From contig OX638340.1 in NCBI GenBank assembly GCA_951812955.1, positions 3,648,001 through 3,712,000 of the forward strand: a stretch of 64,000 nt of DNA, given 5' to 3'. The notes below the pieces were generated by a model. The model was not told where the DNA came from, did not search any database, and was given only the letters and a program-made list of their open reading frames with translations. This DNA is from an uncultured Gemmatimonadota bacterium (GTDB lineage: Bacteria > JAAXHH01). Position numbers and translations under genes: made by a program. This document shows positions 3,959-52,768 of the stretch, piece after piece (the first letter of the stretch is position 1; the number at the start of each line of letters is the position of its first letter).

Positions 3959-5104
3959 ATGCGTAAACACTACCGTTTGATGATCCCAGGTCCCATCGAA
4001 ATAAGCCCCGACGTGGCGGCCCACATGGGCGATCCGATCACCGCCCACTACGGAGATCGCTGGGTGGAGATCTGGCGCAAGACCATTTCCAATCTTCAGC
4101 GCGTCATCGGGACGGAAGGCGATGTTTTCGTACTCGTGGGATCGGGTCACACGGCCAACGACGTGGTCGTGAACAGCCTGTTCAATCCCGGCGACCGGAT
4201 TCTGACCCTCGACAATGGCCTGTTCGGCCGGCGTCTGGATGATCTCGCCAGGGCGTTCGGCCTTGATTCCGTGGTGTTGGAGAAGCCCTGGGGCGTTCCC
4301 TTCGAAGCTTCCGACATCCACGAAGCGGCCGCGGCCAATCCCGGCCTGAAGGCGGTATTCATGGTGCACGGGGAAACTTCAACTGGCGTGGCCAACCCGG
4401 TACGCGAGCTGGCCGCCGCCGCGAAGGAACACGGCATGCTCGTCCTGGCGGACACGATCGCGTCCCTGGGCGGAGAGCAGTACCTGATGGACGCCTGGGA
4501 CATCGACGTCACGGTCTGCGCCTCTCAGAAGGCACTTGGCGCGCCGCCGGGCCTGGCCCTCGTGGCCGTGAGCGACCGGGCATGGGACGTCATGAAAGAC
4601 CGGCGCGAGCCCCGCGGATTCATGGGCGATCTTCAGAACCTGCGCCATTTCGCCGTTACTCAGGCCGACGTCCATCCCCATCCAGGCACCATGCCCGTCA
4701 ACAACTTCGTCGCCCTGGAGAAGAGCACCGCTTCGATCCTGGAGGAAGGTCTCGAGGCGACCTGGACCCGCCACAGAAAGATCGCCCGCGTGGTGCGGGA
4801 AGGGGTCCGCGCCATGGGACTGAAGATCATGGCCGAGGAACGGGCCGCCTGCGTCAACATGACGGTTATCCTTTCGGAAGACCGGTTCAAACCCGTCGCT
4901 TTTTCCGATTTCATGAAGGCCGAGTACGGCATGCACGTCGGCCTGGGCCTGGGTGACTACGTGAATCGGTCGATCCGAGTGGGCCACATGGCGCACAACG
5001 CCAACCTGGAGGCCGTAACGCCGTTCCTGGTCGGCCTGGAACAATACCTGCGCCGGCAGGGCTTCGACGTGGCGCGCGGAGCGTGTCTGGCCGGCCTTGA
5101 CTGA
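3959..5104 (+). CDS. Class V PLP aminotransferase (serine–glyoxylate / alanine–glyoxylate / serine–pyruvate aminotransferase-like)
   Basis: Class V fold-type I blocks: GPIEISPDV, VHGETSTGV and the SQKALGAPPGLA region containing the PLP-lysine. I trimmed the start from the TTG at 3797 to the ATG at 3959 (MRKHYRLMIPGP). Confidence 0.85.
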   Translation: MRKHYRLMIPGPIEISPDVAAHMGDPITAHYGDRWVEIWRKTISNLQRVIGTEGDVFVLVGSGHTANDVVVNSLFNPGDRILTLDNGLFGRRLDDLARAFGLDSVVLEKPWGVPFEASDIHEAAAANPGLKAVFMVHGETSTGVANPVRELAAAAKEHGMLVLADTIASLGGEQYLMDAWDIDVTVCASQKALGAPPGLALVAVSDRAWDVMKDRREPRGFMGDLQNLRHFAVTQADVHPHPGTMPVNNFVALEKSTASILEEGLEATWTRHRKIARVVREGVRAMGLKIMAEERAACVNMTVILSEDRFKPVAFSDFMKAEYGMHVGLGLGDYVNRSIRVGHMAHNANLEAVTPFLVGLEQYLRRQGFDVARGACLAGLD

Positions 5105-5155
5105 GCTGCCGGCCTTGACTGAACTGCCGGTCTGGACTGCCGGCCTGGACCGACC
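5091..5155. repeat. Imperfect short tandem repeat (about 18 bp x3: GGCCTTGACTGAGCTGCC / GGCCTTGACTGAACTGCC / GGTCTGGACTGCC..) spanning the aminotransferase stop and the downstream spacer
   Basis: Read directly from the sequence at 5091-5155. Confidence 0.5.
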
Positions 5156-5237
5156 TCTGGGGCCTGGAAAGAATGCCTCTGGTCGGCTTGTACTGATTCT
5201 ACTTCAATCTCCACCGACGATTCGGGAGAAACCGATC

Positions 5238-5564
5238 ATGATCTACGAAGAACGCATCTATAAAATCATGCCTGGCCGCGTGCCGGACATCCTGGACCGG
5301 TTCACCAACCACGCCCTGCCCCTCTTCGAGAAGCACGGCATGAAGCTGGTGGGCTTCTGGCAGACCGTGATCGGACCCAGCAACCACGAACTCACCTACC
5401 TGCTGGCCTTTGAGGACGCGAACCACCGCGACCGCACCTGGGCGGCGTTCATGGCCGATCCCGCCTGGATCAAGGCCAAGGCCGAAAGCGAAACGAACGG
5501 TCCGCTGGTGGCGGACGTGGCCAACCGGCTCCTCGCGCCGGTTCCTTTCTCTCCCCTGAAATAG
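5238..5564 (+). CDS. NIPSNAP family protein
   Basis: 108 aa. The sequence MIYEERIYKIMPGR..FEDANHRDRTWAAFMADPAW is typical of NIPSNAP. The ATG at 5238 has GGGAGAAA 8 nt upstream, so the longer ORF from 5097 is rejected. Confidence 0.7.
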   Translation: MIYEERIYKIMPGRVPDILDRFTNHALPLFEKHGMKLVGFWQTVIGPSNHELTYLLAFEDANHRDRTWAAFMADPAWIKAKAESETNGPLVADVANRLLAPVPFSPLK

Positions 5565-5582
5565 ACTGTCCCTTTCGGATTC

Positions 5583-7658
5583 ATGGTAAAATCCCCAAGA
5601 CTCAAAAAAGAACTCGGTTTCTTCGAAGTGTACGCCGTGGCGACGGGCACGACGCTGAGCGCAGGCTTCTTCCTGTTGCCCGGCCTGGCCGCGATGGAAG
5701 CCGGTCCGTCCCTCGTGCTGGCCTATCTCCTGGCGACCCTCCCCCTCATTCCGGCCATGCTGTGCATCGTGGAACTGGCCACAGCCATGCCCCGTGCCGG
5801 CGGCGTGTATTACTTCATCGACCGCTCTCTGGGTCCTTACGTCGGACTGATTACCGGTGTCGGAACCTGGCTTGCGCTCATCCTCAAGGTCACCTTCGCC
5901 CTTGTGGGAATGGGCGCCTATATTGCCCTGTTCTTCCCCGGCCTGCCGCAGAAACCCCTAGCCATTGTCCTGGCCGCTGGCCTCGGCGCGGTGAACTATT
6001 TCGGTGCCCGGAAGAGCGGCCGTCTACAGATCTACCTGGTGTTGGGCCTGTTGCTCCTCCTGGCCGGCTTTATTGGTGGTGGAGTACCGGCATTGGAATC
6101 TGCTGCTTTCGAGGGACTCTTCGACGTCGAGGTTACTACGCTCATGGGGACGGCCGGTATGGTCTACATCAGCTACGTGGGCGTAACCAAGGTCGCAAGC
6201 CTTTCGGAAGAAATCGAAAAACCGGAGAAGACCCTTCCCCTGGGCGTGTTCCTTGCCCTGGCCACCTCCGTCCTGGTATATGGTCTCGGCACGGCTATTA
6301 TGGTGGGTGTGATTCCCATCGAACGCCTTTCGGGCGACCTTACGCCGGCGGCAACTGCGGCCGAAATACTGTATGGCTGGTGGGGAAGCCTGTTCATCTC
6401 GGTCGCGGCCCTGCTCGCTTTCGTCTCCGTGGCGAACGCAGGCATCCTGAGCGCTTCGCGCTATCCGCTGGCGATGAGCAGGGACCAGTTGCTGCCCGGC
6501 AGAATCAGCCACGTAACTTCCCAGGGCGTGCCGGTCATCTCGCTGCTGCTTACCGTAGCAAGCATCCTCGTCATCCTGGTGGCCCTGGACCCCGTGGGCA
6601 TCGCCAAGCTGGCTAGCGCCTTTCAACTGGTCGTCTTCGCGTTCGTGTGCCTCGCGGTCGTCGTGATGCGGGAGAGCAGAATCGTCGAGTACGACCCGGG
6701 ATACCGATCGCCCTGGTACCCCTGGATGCACATCGCGGGCATGGTCCTGCCCTTCTTCGTGGTCTGGCAGATGGGTTGGCCCGCCATACTGTTCATCGCC
6801 GGGTTCATTGTCGCCGGGACCCTGTGGTATTTCTACTACGCACGGTTCCGGGCCGACCGCAATGGCGCCATCTACCACATCTTCGAACGGTTGGGTCGCC
6901 TGCGACATAAGGGCCTGGATTCGGAGATGCGGGATATCCTGAAGGAAAAGGGTCTCCGGGACGAAGACCCTTTCGAAGACATGATCACGCGATGCCAGGC
7001 CGTCGATCTGGAGCATGAAATCGAATTCGGGCGGGTTGCCAATGAGGCGGCAGAGAGGTTGTCGGCCCGTATCGGGCTTTCAGTCAATGATATCAGCGAT
7101 CGATTCATGCAAGGGACCCGTGCAGGCGGAACGCCCGTGGCAAAAGGCGTGATGCTGCGCCATTTTCGAATACCGGATCTCGCCCTGCCTGAGCTGGTGC
7201 TCGTCCGTTCGTTCGAGGGCGCACGTGTGAACTACCAGAACCCCGTGACCGGCTTGCAGGATTCAGACGAGATTCATGCGTTTTTCTTTCTGGTCAGCCC
7301 CTTGGAAAACCCCGCGTTGCACCTGCGCATGCTGGCCAGGATTGCGAATCGGGCCGATGACGAGAACTTCGGCCAGGTGTGGATCGCCGCGGTCGATGAG
7401 CACTCCCTTCGCGACATATTTCTGCGTCATGATCGGTACCTTACCGTCCCGGTCCTCCCCCAATCGCCCGCAAGCGTCCTGATTGGAAAGCGAATCTCGG
7501 AGATAGATATCCCCGAAGGATGTCGAATCGTGTGGATACGCCACTTCGATGAGGTTATCATCCCCAGGGGCGATACCGTGATCCAATCCGGCACGCTGCT
7601 GACCGTTATCGGAGAGCCCAACGACGTGAACGTTTTCCGACGAAAGTACCACGCCTAG
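5583..7658 (+). CDS. APC-superfamily amino-acid/polyamine permease fused to C-terminal cytoplasmic PTS-EIIA-type-2 (PtsN-like) and TrkA-C (RCK_C) domains
   Basis: 691 aa. The N-terminal ~430 aa form 12 TM helices with APC signatures. Next comes an EIIA-2-like domain with a retained His (..GVMLRHFRIP..). The C-terminal ..IVWIRHFDEVIIPRGDTVIQSGTLLTVIG.. is an RCK_C fold. Confidence 0.8.
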   Translation: MVKSPRLKKELGFFEVYAVATGTTLSAGFFLLPGLAAMEAGPSLVLAYLLATLPLIPAMLCIVELATAMPRAGGVYYFIDRSLGPYVGLITGVGTWLALILKVTFALVGMGAYIALFFPGLPQKPLAIVLAAGLGAVNYFGARKSGRLQIYLVLGLLLLLAGFIGGGVPALESAAFEGLFDVEVTTLMGTAGMVYISYVGVTKVASLSEEIEKPEKTLPLGVFLALATSVLVYGLGTAIMVGVIPIERLSGDLTPAATAAEILYGWWGSLFISVAALLAFVSVANAGILSASRYPLAMSRDQLLPGRISHVTSQGVPVISLLLTVASILVILVALDPVGIAKLASAFQLVVFAFVCLAVVVMRESRIVEYDPGYRSPWYPWMHIAGMVLPFFVVWQMGWPAILFIAGFIVAGTLWYFYYARFRADRNGAIYHIFERLGRLRHKGLDSEMRDILKEKGLRDEDPFEDMITRCQAVDLEHEIEFGRVANEAAERLSARIGLSVNDISDRFMQGTRAGGTPVAKGVMLRHFRIPDLALPELVLVRSFEGARVNYQNPVTGLQDSDEIHAFFFLVSPLENPALHLRMLARIANRADDENFGQVWIAAVDEHSLRDIFLRHDRYLTVPVLPQSPASVLIGKRISEIDIPEGCRIVWIRHFDEVIIPRGDTVIQSGTLLTVIGEPNDVNVFRRKYHA

Positions 7659-9711: not shown

Positions 9712-10712
9712 CGCCAGGTCTGACGGGCGCGGACTTCGGAGAGGAACCGCTTCGCGTTGCCTGAGAAATGGTCCTCGATCTCCCGCGCGGTCAGACCCAG
9801 CATGTCCGCCACCTGTTTTTCCTGCCTGAGCTGCTCGTAGATGACCAGCGTCGCCCTGGAATCGCAGTGGGGCGTCGTTTCCGTCGTGCCCTCGTAGTAG
9901 GTCCACGCACGCCCGTAGGTCACGTACTTGCCGCGTGCGCATCCCGCCACAACGTTGTCCGAGCCAAACATGACGCGCGAGCGGTCCTCGTGTTTCATCA
10001 GCAGGTATTGGGTGTACAGGTCGTTCACGGCCGAGGTGTCGTACCAGATATTGGGCAGGCCGGTCAGGAACTGGATCGCCCGCTCCATCATGAAGCAGTT
10101 GAAGGCCCTTGCGCAGTGGGCAAGGATCCACTGGGCGCGGGGATACCGCTTCGTGTAATCTGCGAGGTCCCGCTGGTTGTCGGGGTCCGCCGGTCCTTCG
10201 GGCTTGGACATGTGCATCGTGATGGCAAGCCCCATGTCGTGGGCCACCTCGATGAAGGATTCGGGCAGAAAATCGCGGATGCGGCAGTAGGTGGGATCCG
10301 GGGCGAAGGTCCGGTACGGCTTCAGGCCCAGGAAGCCGTGTCTTTTTACCTGCGCGGCCACGTATTCCGGCGTCATGTCGGGCGTGACCATCATGTTGAT
10401 CCCCGATACGGGATCCTGCTTCATCTCCTCGGCCATCCAGTCGTTATGCCCTTCCGTGTCGATCCCCCCCGGGATCGGTGTACCGAGGACCAGGTAGTGC
10501 ATCTCGCGGCCGGGATACATTTTATTCGCCCAGTCCAGGTGGTCCTGGTAGTCGATTTCAAGGCGGAGCCCGGAGGGGTCCGGGTCCAGTCTTCCCCTGT
10601 GCCGCTCAGACCACATGTGGACGTGCATGTCGTAGACGGTGTCCGGTACGTAATCGGCCAGTTCTTCGTCCCATATGCCCCGATCGAATTCCTGGTAGTC
10701 CGGCGCTCGCAT
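9708..10712 (-). CDS. Amidohydrolase-2 family (TIM-barrel metal-dependent hydrolase/decarboxylase, ACMSD-like)
   Basis: DMHVHMW metal-binding start and collinear Amidohydro_2 blocks (..HMSKPEG.., ..FGSD..). I trimmed the start to the ATG at 10712, which has GAGGAGA immediately upstream. Confidence 0.75.
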   Translation of the reverse strand: MRAPDYQEFDRGIWDEELADYVPDTVYDMHVHMWSERHRGRLDPDPSGLRLEIDYQDHLDWANKMYPGREMHYLVLGTPIPGGIDTEGHNDWMAEEMKQDPVSGINMMVTPDMTPEYVAAQVKRHGFLGLKPYRTFAPDPTYCRIRDFLPESFIEVAHDMGLAITMHMSKPEGPADPDNQRDLADYTKRYPRAQWILAHCARAFNCFMMERAIQFLTGLPNIWYDTSAVNDLYTQYLLMKHEDRSRVMFGSDNVVAGCARGKYVTYGRAWTYYEGTTETTPHCDSRATLVIYEQLRQEKQVADMLGLTAREIEDHFSGNAKRFLSEVRARQTWR

Positions 10713-15375: not shown

Positions 15376-16209
15376 ATGCCCATTACCGACGCCCTGCCCG
15401 ATATGAAGCGGGAACTTCGTTTTTTTCCGGCAAGATCCGAAAATCCGAAAGCGCTTTCCCGTGAACAGATCGACTTCTTCAACACGAACGGGTATCTGTG
15501 CCCCCTCGATGTATTTACGCCGCGGGAAGCCGAAGCGAACCGCCTGTATTTCGAGGACCTGATGGCCCGTGCAGAGAAGGAAGGGTACAACAGCTACTCC
15601 ATCAACGGCTGGCATCGGCATTGCGAGGGCATCTACAACCTGGCCATGAACGAGAGGATTCTGGACTACGCGGAGGACCTGGTCGGCGAGACGTTGATCT
15701 GCGAGATGACCCACTATTTCTGCAAGATGCCGGGCGACGTGCAGCGGGTGAGCTGGCACCAGGACGCCTCCTACTGGCCTCTGACCCCGAGCAAAGTGGT
15801 GACGATCTGGCTGGCCATAGACGACGTGGACGGGGAAAACGGACCCATGACGGTCATCCCCGGTTCACACCTTCACGGACAAATCCCCTTCGAGAACAGC
15901 ACGAAAGCCGAACGCAACGTGCTGGGACAGTCCGTCCACGACCCGCTCAGGTGGGGTGGCGATCCCGTGCCCTTTACCATGAAGGCGGGCCAGATCTCCA
16001 TGCACACCGACCTGCTGCTGCACGGTTCCGAGCCGAATGTTTCCGACCGCCGCCGCTGCGGACTGACGATACGGTATCTGCCGCCGGACGTCCGGGGCCG
16101 CTACCCGGAATACCACAGGGCCATCATCTGCCGAGGCAGCGATCCCTCGGGTTATTGGAGACCCATACCCCGCCCGACGGGCGACCAGATTCCTCCACGC
16201 AATCGCTAG
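15376..16209 (+). CDS. PhyH family Fe(II)/2OG-dependent oxygenase
   Basis: WHQDASYWPL and IWLAIDDVDGENGPMTVIPGSH motifs. Confidence 0.8.
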   Translation: MPITDALPDMKRELRFFPARSENPKALSREQIDFFNTNGYLCPLDVFTPREAEANRLYFEDLMARAEKEGYNSYSINGWHRHCEGIYNLAMNERILDYAEDLVGETLICEMTHYFCKMPGDVQRVSWHQDASYWPLTPSKVVTIWLAIDDVDGENGPMTVIPGSHLHGQIPFENSTKAERNVLGQSVHDPLRWGGDPVPFTMKAGQISMHTDLLLHGSEPNVSDRRRCGLTIRYLPPDVRGRYPEYHRAIICRGSDPSGYWRPIPRPTGDQIPPRNR

Positions 16210-16295
16210 TATCTACATTGTATCGACGGCGCATTGTCGGTATCTACGGCAAGAGTGGTATCAACGCCGCAATTGTGGTATCTACGGCGCAATAG
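16207..16295. repeat. Tandem array of 4-5 degenerate ~19-20 bp units (consensus about ATTGTnGGTATCTACGGCGC) in a convergent intergenic region
   Basis: Copies of GGTATCnACGGCGC begin at about 16220, 16240, 16259 and 16279, with a partial copy at 16209. Confidence 0.7.
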
Positions 16296-16335: not shown

Positions 16336-17226
16336 CTATGCCGAAAGCGGCCTGCAGTTTTTACACGGCCGGCATCCGCCGTTCGTTGCGTCCTCCGTAC
16401 TGCTGAATTCAAGGCGGTGCTCCCGCTTGATGCGCCGCGCATCACGGCAGGTGGGGTAACAGTAAATTCCTGTAGTTCGGCTTCCGATGTAGCGTACACC
16501 CCGCTGCTTCCAATTAGCGAGATCTTCCCTCGGTATTCCTTCCCGTTCCAGCAGCGTCCATTTCATTTCCGGACCGTAGTAGTAGTTTCCCACGCCCCCG
16601 GTCGAGGGTACAAGCCGGTGGCAGGGCACCAGGAAGGGAACGGGATTCCGGGCCATGACCGTTCCAACGGCACGGACCGCCTTCGGTCTGCCCACCTCCC
16701 GGGCCAGCCAGGCATAGGGACGGACCTCTCCAGACGGTATCCTGGCCAGGTGTACCAGCACGGTCTGTTCGAATTCGGTAAGTCCCTCAAGGGTAACCGG
16801 TGGCTGAGCGATCTTTTCTCCTCTTATGGCCCGTCTGACTGCCAGGGCGTAGGTTTCCGGCAAGGAACCACGTACTACGGAACGCCCGAGCCTGTCTTTG
16901 TAAAATGACTCGAAGGCGCCGTCCTCCGCCACGTCGAGTTTAACCGCGGATATGCCCTTTGGCGTGAAACCTACGTGCGCCGGCCCGAAATCCGTGTCGA
17001 TGACATCGTACCGATCTGCAATCCTGATCATAACTTCCTCCATGAGCCCCGCGGGGGCGGTCAGTATCAGTTTGGGAGATGCCGCTGCGAGATGCCCCAT
17101 GAATGCGGCCTCTTCGCGGCATGCGGCACACACTTCCAGGTGTTCCACCACGGCCCGGCTCGCCTTATCGTACGCCTCGCCGGTTCTGATTTGATCCAGT
17201 TGCTGTCTTGCTTCGTTACAGTCCAC
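16336..17226 (-). CDS. Cytoplasmic ZAS-type anti-sigma factor fused to Ogt/MGMT (O6-alkylguanine-DNA alkyltransferase, N- and C-domains) and an Ada-N-like Cys4 zinc domain
   Basis: From the N-terminus, VDC..(27)..HLEVCAAC gives the C..HX3CX2C spacing of ZAS anti-sigma factors (RsrA is C11/H37/C41/C44). The central region has the MGMT blocks (..FEQ.VL..L..IP.GE...Y..LA...G.PKAVRAVG...NP, then active-site PCHRLV..G..GNYYYG...K..LL.REG). The C-terminus TTGIYCYPTCRDARRIKREHRLEF..GGCRPCKNCRP matches E. coli Ada-N (TTGIFCRPSCRARHALRENVSFY..GFRPCKRCQP). The start is a GTG at 17226, which overlaps the sigma stop (AGTGGACTGTAA). Confidence 0.75.
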   Translation of the reverse strand: MDCNEARQQLDQIRTGEAYDKASRAVVEHLEVCAACREEAAFMGHLAAASPKLILTAPAGLMEEVMIRIADRYDVIDTDFGPAHVGFTPKGISAVKLDVAEDGAFESFYKDRLGRSVVRGSLPETYALAVRRAIRGEKIAQPPVTLEGLTEFEQTVLVHLARIPSGEVRPYAWLAREVGRPKAVRAVGTVMARNPVPFLVPCHRLVPSTGGVGNYYYGPEMKWTLLEREGIPREDLANWKQRGVRYIGSRTTGIYCYPTCRDARRIKREHRLEFSSTEDATNGGCRPCKNCRPLSA

Positions 17227-17770
17227 TGGGGTCGTCCTCCATGATTTTGCGAAGTCTGCGTAGCGCCCGGTACACCTTGCCCCGCAGCGCCGATTCCGAC
17301 GAACCGGTGACTGCCGCGATATCCGCATAGGTGTATTGCTCGATGAATCGCAGAATGATCAATTCCCGGCTTTCTCTGCCCAGTCTTTCGAGAGCCTTCC
17401 GGATCGCCCTGGCCTGGTCGTTTTGGGGGACGAAGGCCTGCTCTTGAAGGTCGTCCTTCATCCGCTCTACCGCGCCTGTCATGCGTTTGCGCGACCTCAG
17501 CCTGTTCAACGCCAGGTTCCGCACGATGCGGTACAGCCAGGGACGGATTTCGAGCGTCCGGCACCGCTCCGAGTCGTACTTACCGGAGAGTGTTTCGTAG
17601 GCCTTGACAAAGGCTTCCTGCGTAACGTCGAGGGCATCGTCCGAACCACCGAGCATGTGGAAGGCGTAGGTGAAGAGTCTGTCCTTGTATGCCGCCACCA
17701 GGTTTGCCACCGCGCCTCTGTTGCCGCGATGGATTTCCAGCGCGATGCATCGTCCCTCTTCCTGCGTCAT
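17216..17770 (-). CDS. ECF (sigma-70 family, group IV) RNA polymerase sigma factor
   Basis: Region 2 (..DVTQEAFVKAY..) and region 4 (..LILRFIEQYTYADIAAVTGSSESALRGKVYRALRRLR) are both present. It is translationally coupled to the downstream anti-sigma gene. Confidence 0.85.
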   Translation of the reverse strand: MTQEEGRCIALEIHRGNRGAVANLVAAYKDRLFTYAFHMLGGSDDALDVTQEAFVKAYETLSGKYDSERCRTLEIRPWLYRIVRNLALNRLRSRKRMTGAVERMKDDLQEQAFVPQNDQARAIRKALERLGRESRELIILRFIEQYTYADIAAVTGSSESALRGKVYRALRRLRKIMEDDPSGL

Positions 17771-17814: not shown

Positions 17815-17839
17815 AACACCGTCGAGGCGGATTACGTTC
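17815..17839 (-). promoter_or_regulatory. Candidate SigR-like autoregulatory promoter (GAAC -35, 18 nt spacer, GTT -10) upstream of the ECF sigma gene
   Basis: On the minus strand the sequence reads ccGAACgtaatccgcctcgacggtGTTtta, about 45-70 nt upstream of the sigma ATG. This is pattern match only. Confidence 0.25.
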
Positions 17840-17972
17840 GGATCAAAACGAATTCGAGTATCCTTCTTGACAGCTTCTTTGCTGTTTCTTTCCTTACCAA
17901 TAAGATCCTTGTTTTCTTATCTTACTGCACATCAGTCGCAATTCGGCGAAATTCATTGTCCCATCTACGCCA

Positions 17973-18170
17973 ATGCCTCGAAAAGTCAGAGAGCTGATTA
18001 AGGATTTGGTAGATGCGGGATTTGTTGAAACAGGTGGGAAAGGCAGCCATAGGAAATTCACACATGTACGAGTATCGAAAATCGTGGTCCTATCTGGCCA
18101 CCTTGGAGACGATTCGAAAAGCTATCAGGAACAGGCCATTAACGTAGCAATCAAGGAGTCACAGAAATGA
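17973..18170 (+). CDS. hicA: HicA-family toxin (mRNA interferase) of a type II toxin-antitoxin system
   Basis: 65 aa containing ..GGKGSHRKFTH.., the HicA motif. A 4-nt ATGA overlap joins it to the downstream gene. Confidence 0.75.
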   Translation: MPRKVRELIKDLVDAGFVETGGKGSHRKFTHVRVSKIVVLSGHLGDDSKSYQEQAINVAIKESQK

Positions 18171-18406
18171 AGACGAGTGCTCAATATGTGAAGATAGTGG
18201 AATGGTCAGAAGAGGATCAGTGTTTCGTCGGCAGCTGTCCCGGCCTGCTCTACGGTGGGTGTCATGGTGATAACGAACAGGAAGTGTTCTCCGAGTTATG
18301 CCGGATCGTAGAGGAAACCATAAATTTGTATAGACGAGACGGCCGGTCCCTTCCTTCACCGACATCGGGAAAAGACTACGCCAATAAAATGCTGGATATC
18401 GTCTGA
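18167..18406 (+). CDS. hicB: HicB-family antitoxin (UPF0150-type, short form lacking a C-terminal DNA-binding domain)
   Basis: 79 aa with ..IVEWSEEDQCFVGSCPGL..GHGDNEQEVFSEL..E.. characteristic of the HicB RNase-H-like fold. AAGGAG lies 9 nt upstream of the ATG. Confidence 0.7.
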   Translation: MKTSAQYVKIVEWSEEDQCFVGSCPGLLYGGCHGDNEQEVFSELCRIVEETINLYRRDGRSLPSPTSGKDYANKMLDIV

Positions 18407-51994: not shown

Positions 51995-52768
51995 ATGAAC
52001 GGCGCCGAAATCGTACGTCGGTACGAAGAAGATGGTTACGTCGTCGTGCCCGGGGTCATCGACAGCGAGCTGACCGCCGAGGCGCAGGGACATATCGAGT
52101 GGATGGGAGAGAAACACCCCGATGTCCGCCCCGAACAGTACCATCACCACCTGATCGTGGACGATCCGTTCTGGATACGACTTTGCACCGACCCTCGGCT
52201 CATCGACGTCATCGAACCGTTCCTGGGTCCCGATATCGCGCTCTTCGCGGCGCACTACATCAGCAAGCCGCCCCGGGACGGGCAGCCCGTACTCTGGCAC
52301 CAGGACGGGAACTACTGGCCGCTGGAGCCCATGGAGGTCATCACGATCTGGCTGGCCGTGGACGATTCGAACCCGGAAAACGGATGCATGCGGGTCGTCC
52401 CCGGCAGCCACCGGGACCAGAACCTGTTCAAACACCGTGCTTCGGACGGGGAAAACGTGTTGCGTTCGGAACTCGATCTGAAGGTGGATGAATCCACTGC
52501 GGCGGACGTCGTCGTGCCGGCGGGCGGCGTTTCGCTGCACGATCCCTACCTGATTCACGGCTCTGAGGCCAACCGGTCCGACCGTCGGCGATGCGGGTTG
52601 ACCCTCCGGTATATCCCCACGACCACGCGTATAAAGCGCGAGAACTTCCCGGCCTACCTTTGCCGCGGCAGGGCGGTGGAGGGCATCAACCACTATCCCC
52701 CGCTTCCCCGCTTCCGTGCCGGCGAACACTATCCCTTTAACGGGTGTGACCGGCCGCCGTGGAACTGA
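51995..52768 (+). CDS. PhyH family Fe(II)/2OG-dependent oxygenase
   Basis: WHQDGNYWPL and IWLAVDDSNPENGCMRVVPGSHRD motifs. The ATG at 51995 has AGGAAA upstream. Confidence 0.8.
   Translation: MNGAEIVRRYEEDGYVVVPGVIDSELTAEAQGHIEWMGEKHPDVRPEQYHHHLIVDDPFWIRLCTDPRLIDVIEPFLGPDIALFAAHYISKPPRDGQPVLWHQDGNYWPLEPMEVITIWLAVDDSNPENGCMRVVPGSHRDQNLFKHRASDGENVLRSELDLKVDESTAADVVVPAGGVSLHDPYLIHGSEANRSDRRRCGLTLRYIPTTTRIKRENFPAYLCRGRAVEGINHYPPLPRFRAGEHYPFNGCDRPPWN

Follow-up and report, generated by a model that had tools for sequence, protein, structure and literature searches.

Could the release of an extracytoplasmic function (ECF) sigma factor be governed by the suicide chemistry of DNA alkylation repair? 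The question is raised by two adjoining genes on the minus strand of a 64,000-nucleotide stretch from an uncultured Gemmatimonadota bacterium (assembly GCA_951812955.1, contig OX638340.1, positions 3,648,001 to 3,712,000), which is referred to here, at its full length, as the window. The upstream gene encodes an ECF sigma factor, and the downstream open reading frame (ORF) encodes a predicted fusion of a zinc-binding anti-sigma (ZAS) domain, an O6-methylguanine-DNA methyltransferase (MGMT) and a zinc domain of the type found at the N terminus of Escherichia coli Ada (AdaZn). Since the promoter motif, the adjacency of the sigma gene and the overlap of the two genes are conserved across loci, there is strong support for one predicted operon, autoregulated and translationally coupled, that encodes a sigma factor together with a soluble class I anti-sigma factor. 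We hold the architecture and the autoregulation, taken together, with very high confidence. The features are as follows, in the direction of transcription.

17815..17840, minus strand: conserved ECF-type promoter CGAACGTAATCCGCCTCGACGGTGTT, with -35 CGAAC, N16 and -10 GTGTT (motif conservation)

17216..17770, minus strand: ECF sigma factor gene, 184 aa, with regions sigma2 and sigma4 and without sigma3 (Pfam, NCBIfam)

17216..17240, minus strand: predicted translational-coupling junction, with GGAGGA at 17235-17240, GTG at 17224-17226 and the sigma TAA at 17216-17218

16336..17226, minus strand: fusion ORF, 296 aa, with GTG start at 17226-17224 and stop at 16336-16338 (read from the sequence)

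17017..17226, minus strand: predicted class I ZAS-type anti-sigma domain, aa 1-70, with helices H3-15, H20-32, H34-53 and H61-69 and ligands C3/H29/C33/C36 (profile, AlphaFold2, Foldseek)

16531..17016, minus strand: predicted O6-alkylguanine-DNA alkyltransferase, aa 71-232, N lobe and C lobe, with P201-C202-H203-R204 and the Cys202 codon at 16621-16623 (Pfam, TIGR00589, 1sfe, Foldseek)

16339..16530, minus strand: linker helix, aa 233-242, and predicted N-Ada-type zinc domain, aa 244-296, with Cys4 C256/C260/C288/C291 (Pfam, 1adn, Foldseek)

The 3′ end of the sigma gene, with its TAA stop, and the start of the fusion ORF have 11 nt in common, and a Shine-Dalgarno-like GGAGGA lies 8 nt 5′ of the GTG. 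The first-pass annotation, made from the sequence alone, had moved the start to a GTG overlapping the sigma stop and had put the product at 297 aa; the GTG agrees with the 11-nt overlap and with the starts of the homologues, and the length is one residue less, 296 aa. A 330-aa reading of the ORF from an ATG at 17328 was ruled out, because the homologues share a start at the position of the window GTG (the M/V-D/R-C position, where L017 and most other phyla have an ATG) and because relatives carry in-frame stops upstream, located 5-11 codons before the start in L014, L016 and L017-L019.

With the start settled, the ORF itself might be an artefact, arising from a fused or frameshifted call, from a pseudogene or from motifs that lie together by chance. 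We assign this next to no probability and regard it as effectively refuted already. What it has in its favour is the L022 homologue (5001-5887, in a long-read metagenome-assembled genome, MAG), which is split over three frames. Against it, the window ORF is intact over its 296 aa, and more than 100 homologues from independent assemblies, full-length at 291-305 aa and 45-92% identical, were returned by a protein search. The key residues are invariant, and the single-chain AlphaFold2 model is confident. Many of the homologues carry PF13490, PF01035 and PF02805 together, although their database names refer to the methyltransferase only. It is well supported that the ZAS-MGMT-AdaZn fusion is a real and widespread architecture. 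As for L022 itself, its three-frame split is either an assembly error or a pseudogene.

The product of the upstream gene matched Sigma70_r2 (7e-14), Sigma70_r4_2 (1e-11) and Sigma70_ECF (1.6e-5) in Pfam, and scored 83.8 bits with the generic ECF model TIGR02937 of NCBIfam, for which the cut-off is 42.9; none of the NCBIfam equivalog models was matched at its cut-off. With regions r2 and r4_2 only in 184 aa, it is classed by its domains as a predicted ECF sigma factor (group 4 sigma-70).

The anti-sigma domain is hardly visible to single-sequence searches. Submitted alone as a single sequence, the window N-terminus gave marginal matches to Pfam zf-HC2 (E=0.055) and to the RsrA model (0.007), and Pfam returned no zf-HC2 match on the full-length protein. 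A family profile of residues 1-72, built from 26 homologues, had only class I anti-sigma factors as its top matches in the PDB (RsiW 3.6e-6, RslA 1.7e-3, DdvA 2.3e-3 and ChrR 9.5e-3), and it matched 19,338 cluster representatives at E<=1e-3, which confirms that the domain belongs to the large ZAS superfamily but tells nothing about the MGMT architecture. Foldseek aligned the modelled N-terminal domain with RsiW (5wuq_D) over 66 columns, with a TM-score of 0.68 and a root-mean-square deviation (rmsd) of 2.7 Å. The zinc motif has the RsrA-like spacing C-x25-H-x3-C-x2-C, and no transmembrane segment was found in the fusion protein (maximum Kyte-Doolittle value 1.08 over 19 residues). By homology, by the H-x3-C-x2-C motif with its upstream Cys and by its pairing with a sigma gene, the N-terminal domain is predicted to be a class I ZAS-type anti-sigma domain.

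Downstream of it, the alkyltransferase matched Pfam DNA_binding_1 (1e-25) and TIGR00589 (1.6e-24), both above cut-off, and no match to Pfam Methyltransf_1N was obtained on the window protein. With a profile of the full-length family, residues 69-230 aligned across the two lobes of E. coli Ada-C (1sfe residues 13-175, 6e-28), and Foldseek superposed the model on 1sfe with a TM-score of 0.79 over 167 columns. A two-lobe MGMT fold is therefore predicted, with the PCHR active site, its Glu-His-water-Cys network, the Arg finger, the Asn hinge and the Tyr residues of an HTH-bearing, DNA-binding C lobe. As family profiles and structure recover both domains, the absence of Methyltransf_1N and zf-HC2 from the Pfam output is resolved.

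The C-terminal module is predicted to be a zinc domain of the Ada_Zn_binding (N-Ada methylphosphotriester) type. It matched Pfam Ada_Zn_binding (PF02805) at 8e-10, above the curated cut-off and over profile positions 15-64 of 65, while residues 248-294 aligned to chain residues 30-75 of N-Ada (1adn) at 5e-10. Foldseek aligned it with the methylated N-Ada/DNA complex (1u8b) over 54 columns with an rmsd of 2.1 Å and 42% identity. The site C256/C260/C288/C291 is equivalent to C38/C42/C69/C72 of Ada, C256 being the counterpart of the methyl acceptor Cys38; the first helix of N-Ada is missing.

The AlphaFold2 model of the fusion protein, built on a 64-sequence alignment, reached a predicted local distance difference test (pLDDT) of 91 and a predicted template-modelling score (pTM) of 0.74. 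It consists of four N-terminal helices, the MGMT N lobe (strands 71-97), the C lobe, the linker helix and the zinc domain, and helix 4 of the anti-sigma domain leads directly into the strand with which the alkyltransferase N lobe begins. All three folds were recovered by Foldseek (1sfe, 1u8b and RsiW 5wuq_D).

These results agree in the main with what the first-pass annotation had read from the letters, namely a complete alkyltransferase with its N-domain and PCHR site, a C-terminal Cys4 cluster of the Ada type, no transmembrane segment and no helix-turn-helix (HTH), for which Pfam gave no HTH_AraC or HTH_18 match. Its ZAS motif keeps C3 and the RsrA-like spacing, and the other ligands, given as H30/C34/C37, are each off by one and are really H29/C33/C36. 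It had also proposed to run Pfam for the MGMT, Ada_Zn_binding and zf-HC2 models; there DNA_binding_1 and Ada_Zn_binding came up strongly, while Methyltransf_1N did not and zf-HC2 was weak, so that the N lobe and the anti-sigma domain were found by profile and Foldseek.

Two further observations concern the C-terminal part. An extra cysteine, Cys285 (codon 16372-16374, in GGCRPC), stands beside the Ada zinc site in 36 of the 43 proteins of the window clade (defined below) and is specific to that clade, being replaced by Tyr/Phe in other lineages; in E. coli Ada the position is a Phe. An Ala-rich, ClpXP-type C-terminal degron was considered and dropped, the tails being heterogeneous (LSV, LSA, AA, AS or none).

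The pairing of the fusion with a sigma gene holds far beyond the window, where the first-pass annotation had proposed to look for conserved sigma neighbours and for the same fusion. Scanning GTDB species genomes gave 80 related loci, and in 72 of them, from at least six phyla, the gene directly preceding the homologue on its strand encodes an ECF sigma factor. The eight sigma-less loci all lack the N-terminal ~65 residues, and the co-occurrence of N-terminal domain and sigma gene is thus perfect. Where a full-length homologue is present (56 loci), the 11-nt overlap is identical in 41 and a 14-nt overlap is found in 10 more, spread over Gemmatimonadota/Latescibacterota-like, Acidobacteriota, Chloroflexota and Eremiobacterota MAGs.

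The promoter is conserved as well. In the window it extends from ~70 to 44 nt upstream of the sigma ATG, and 17815-17840 on the minus strand is the sole exact match to CGAAC-N16-GTGTT in the 64 kb. Counted on both strands over 801 kb (the 80 loci plus the window), the motif occurs 43 times, 42 of these in the related loci, against 0.8 in shuffled sequence. All 43 copies lie on the coding strand 35-310 nt (typically ~70) upstream of a sigma start, with none elsewhere. Related motifs occur in other relatives, TGCAAC..GGGTTC in the actinobacterial ones and GTGAAAC..GTT in those from Eremiobacterota. The GAAC/N18/GTT match that had earlier been pointed out upstream of the sigma gene is thus real and is part of this longer conserved element, and the autoregulation proposed from it gains support from the motif's conservation and constant position. 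The one other similar site in the window, at 52724 and with one mismatch, was rejected as a candidate regulon site because it is at chance level.

Three architectures were found linked to a sigma gene. The first is the window type, ZAS-MGMT-AdaZn; the second, in Eremiobacterota/Vulcanimicrobiota and also in L053, has ZAS and MGMT without the Ada zinc domain; and the third is a short form from Actinomycetota, Limnocylindria and Thermomicrobiales (L045-L066) that lacks anti-sigma helices 1-3. The N-terminus of the short form aligns to window residues 46-98 (hhalign probability 97.6%), a region that runs from the end of helix 3 through helix 4 into the first strands, and includes the stretch LAxL-xxx-AP-x6-VLLGxGLADGY. 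Stand-alone MGMT-AdaZn genes, with neither this stretch nor any other N-terminal extension and with no sigma gene, were found in L028, L063 and L065, and L060 has a stand-alone MGMT-AdaZn gene as well. That of L028, a Gemmatimonadota MAG (~5001-5681), sits in a window-like PhyH/DnaJ synteny without sigma gene or anti-sigma domain. The stand-alone genes and the L028 synteny suggest that the anti-sigma domain captured a pre-existing repair module. L028 and the window can also be seen as a natural before/after pair for the capture or the loss of the regulatory module.

The short forms lead to a group that has been catalogued before. In its list of ECF groups, a 2022 review (PMC8999054) that cites the 2021 ECF reclassification (Casas-Pastor 2021) gives ECF122 no anti-sigma factor, conserved O6-methylguanine methyltransferase neighbours, an unknown mechanism and an example from Cellulomonas. 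The conserved MGMT neighbour is what the window operon shares with the group as listed there, and the full ZAS anti-sigma domain of the window protein is where it differs. The promoter elements differ too, CGAAC..GTGTT in the window versus TGCAAC..GGGTTC in the actinobacterial ECF122-like loci. The window sigma factor is 30-34% identical to actinobacterial sigma factors that fit ECF122, the match to ECF122 being by the MGMT-neighbour criterion alone, and the actinobacterial-type loci L045-L066 are probably ECF122-type. As a corollary, such seemingly orphan sigma factors may not be without an anti-sigma factor, as the stretch at the N terminus of their MGMT, which corresponds to helix 4 and the part of helix 3 that precedes it, may serve as a minimal sigma-binding element.

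These same loci bear on the possibility that the anti-sigma domain transduces no alkylation signal at all. The sigma factor would then be set by transcription, regulated proteolysis or another partner, and the fusion would serve dosage matching or the tethering of sigma or RNA polymerase to a DNA-bound repair protein. The sigma-linked actinobacterial homologues without helices 1-3, the listing of ECF122 without an anti-sigma factor in the review's group entry (PMC8999054), and the operon promoter being the sole site found all fit such an arrangement, whose common theme may be merely a sigma factor transcribing MGMT. We nevertheless find it unlikely, because the N-terminal domain never occurs apart from the sigma gene in the 80 loci, the 11-nt overlap is kept across phyla, and the domain has genuine anti-sigma homology by profile and by Foldseek. 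An anti-sigma factor with no route of release would, moreover, silence its own autoregulated operon.

If the domain does transduce a signal, the next question is at which residues the signal enters. We compared the window clade (43 cluster representatives of at least 70% identity) with a distant set (76 proteins below 70% identity). The MGMT residues Y171, R185, N194, P201, C202, H203, R204, Y215 and E229 are invariant in A1, and so are the cysteines C256, C260, C288 and C291. All of these residues are present in 43/43 proteins of the window clade and in 73-76 of the 76 distant ones, the range in the distant set being 74-76 for the MGMT residues other than P201 and 73-74 for the four cysteines. 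The ZAS ligands behave differently, since at least one of them is lost in 26 of the 43 window-clade proteins (the losers being 75-86% identical). C3 and C36 usually go jointly, C3 being replaced by I/K/R/T/G and C36 by L/F/I/S/M, and some proteins also lost H29 or C33; the losses are located in L004-L016, L023 and P0007-P0040. C3 and C36 presumably correspond to C11 and C44, the trigger disulfide pair of RsrA. The zinc-less domains are still conserved, with no sign of decay: their pairwise identity is 75%, that of the zinc-intact ones 70%, and in helix 4 it reaches 88%. Sigma gene, overlap and promoter are all retained at their loci.

This pattern weighs on the alternative that sensing resides in the ZAS domain, like that of RsrA and RshA, with oxidants or electrophiles, alkylating agents included, attacking C3/C33/C36 and with MGMT-AdaZn as co-expressed cargo. 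The C-x25-H-x3-C-x2-C spacing is that of RsrA; the window protein has each of the four ligands, and each also occurs in 74-76 of the 76 proteins of the distant set. For Corynebacterium glutamicum, a model has been put forward in which depletion of thiols through oxidation or alkylation frees SigH from RshA, and a putative MGMT gene was 1.9-fold up in the rshA mutant (PMC3489674). Yet 26 of 43 close relatives have lost ligands, mostly C3/C36, with a conserved anti-sigma domain, sigma gene, overlap and promoter all kept; the zinc of class I anti-sigma factors is often structural (PMC7406223); and a suicide alkyl acceptor as fusion partner in six phyla would be left unexplained. We therefore judge a sensing role of the ZAS domain improbable. 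As to a common input, an RsrA-type switch is argued against by the loss of ligands in 26 of 43 proteins while the acceptor and catalytic residues are invariant, and on this residue pattern a thiol/zinc switch cannot be the input shared by the window clade.

Our preferred explanation is that alkylation of the fused repair modules releases the sigma factor. Translational coupling would fix the proportion of sigma to anti-sigma factor, and the N-terminal four-helix domain would sequester the sigma factor; we take the coupling as established because of the gene organisation and the homology with other anti-sigma domains. O6-alkylguanine and Sp-methylphosphotriesters would be repaired by irreversible alkyl transfer to Cys202 and Cys256, respectively, an activity we infer because the catalytic machinery is fully conserved. 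The alkylated protein would then lose its grip on the sigma factor, either by a conformational change relayed via helix 4 or by destabilisation and proteolysis. The freed sigma factor would transcribe the operon from CGAAC-N16-GTGTT, and the fresh, unalkylated repair protein would recapture it.

The release of sigma by suicide alkyl transfer fits the evidence: the acceptors are invariant, the ZAS ligands are dispensable in sister lineages, and Chloroflexota have operons that combine alkyltransferases with an AlkA-like gene. Several observations weigh against it. Neither the window nor ~800 kb of flanks yielded a second promoter site, and no alkylation-repair gene is a conserved neighbour outside two Chloroflexota loci. 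The Eremiobacterota variants do without the Ada zinc domain and the actinobacterial ones without helices 1-3, which leaves MGMT as the sole universal module. The window protein, moreover, has all four of its zinc ligands, as do nearly all distant relatives (74-76/76), and in these proteins a thiol/zinc switch may therefore operate. On balance, we put the whole mechanism, an autoregulated sigma/anti-sigma operon in which alkylation of the fused repair modules frees the sigma factor, at slightly better than an even chance. A stricter form of it, in which the anti-sigma factor would be a consumable suicide enzyme, one alkyl group on Cys202 or Cys256 inactivating one molecule and freeing one sigma, so that the operon would work as a stoichiometric damage counter re-set by re-synthesis, is put forward tentatively, at a little under even chances.

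How does such a system relate to those already known? E. coli Ada has the same two suicide acceptor modules (its Cys38 corresponding to C256, its PCHR cysteine to C202), and its gene is also autoregulated, so the two may share a logic in which using up the repair protein signals damage and sets off its renewed production. The differences are that Ada carries an AraC-type HTH, which the window protein lacks; that the domain order is reversed in the window protein, with MGMT before the zinc domain and with the first ~29 residues of N-Ada absent; and that Ada binds its promoter directly, whereas release of an ECF sigma factor is proposed here. The window protein scored 99 bits with the Ada equivalog NF011964, far below its cut-off of 345, and for this reason and for want of an HTH it is not an Ada regulatory protein, though it would in part work like one. 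In Bacillus subtilis (AdaA/AdaB) and Mycobacterium tuberculosis (AdaA-AlkA/Ogt) the Ada zinc, HTH, MGMT and AlkA modules are distributed in other ways. The sigma operon of Chloroflexota is comparable with these as an alkylation operon, while they rely on an AraC-type HTH activator and are not known to use a sigma/anti-sigma pair.

The pairs RsrA/SigR, RshA/SigH, ChrR/SigE and RsiW/SigW resemble the window system in the N-terminal four-helix class I domain with H-x3-C-x2-C, and in an ECF sigma operon with an autoregulated promoter of the AAC...GTT type. ChrR is the best analogue, having a soluble ZAS domain and a separate C-terminal sensor, a cupin. The window system departs from these ZAS anti-sigma factors in that its sister lineages dispense with the zinc ligands, and neither a transmembrane segment nor a proteolytic cascade is evident in the window. 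To our knowledge, a pair of DNA-repair alkyl acceptors has not been described as the C-terminal partner of any characterised anti-sigma factor. The literature searched contained no ZAS-MGMT-AdaZn fusion as an anti-sigma factor and no characterised sigma/anti-sigma-MGMT system, so the earlier remark that no characterised pair of this kind was known holds there. It needs the addition that the association of the sigma and MGMT genes is already catalogued as ECF122, and had thus been noticed at least for actinobacterial members, as the review's group entry indicates (PMC8999054).

Around the operon, little is shared beyond the clade. The window genes are flanked by a convergent PhyH-family dioxygenase gene (15376-16209, plus strand), DnaJ-domain and TenA genes, and a divergent HicA/HicB-like pair, and the conserved neighbours other than sigma (PhyH, DnaJ and TenA) reflect clade-level synteny only. 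The operon is bicistronic outside two Chloroflexota loci, L029 (4355-7668) and L031 (4391-7645), where the sigma gene and the ZAS-MGMT-AdaZn gene are followed by a second MGMT-AdaZn gene without ZAS and by an HhH-GPD (AlkA-like) glycosylase gene.

The HicA/HicB-like pair (17973-18406, plus strand) lies directly upstream of the sigma promoter and divergent from it. It consists of a HicA toxin gene (Pfam 6e-10) and an overlapping 79-aa HicB-like ORF without a Pfam match, and it is absent at the same position in the syntenic loci L081-L084. Between the convergent PhyH gene and the anti-sigma stop, at 16220-16293, there is a 20-nt tandem repeat of 3.8 copies with the consensus GTATCTACGGCGCAATTGTG, whose core GGTATCTACGGC has no other occurrence in the window. 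L081-L084 are marine relatives with an anti-sigma factor 53% identical to that of the window; they carry an Endonuclease V gene (deaminated-base repair) at 9945-10472, two genes downstream and beside PhyH, which was not seen at the corresponding position in the window.

The system is small, consisting of two genes and one defined promoter, and is directly testable in vitro. MGMT is the parent of the SNAP-tag, and the pair described here could be developed for synthetic biology into a sigma/anti-sigma switch that is compact, orthogonal and triggered covalently. Inducible alkylation responses in well-studied bacteria run via Ada-type HTH activators, and most known roles of ECF sigma factors lie in sensing the envelope, redox state and metals. 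If the proposed release is true, it would suggest a mechanism for ECF122, listed with mechanism unknown, and would add a direct DNA-damage input to ECF signalling, in what would be the first ECF pathway under the direct control of DNA-repair chemistry. The adaptive response would then also have been wired a second time, by independent evolution, in Gemmatimonadota/Latescibacterota-like bacteria, Acidobacteriota, Chloroflexota, Zixibacteria, Eremiobacterota and Actinomycetota.

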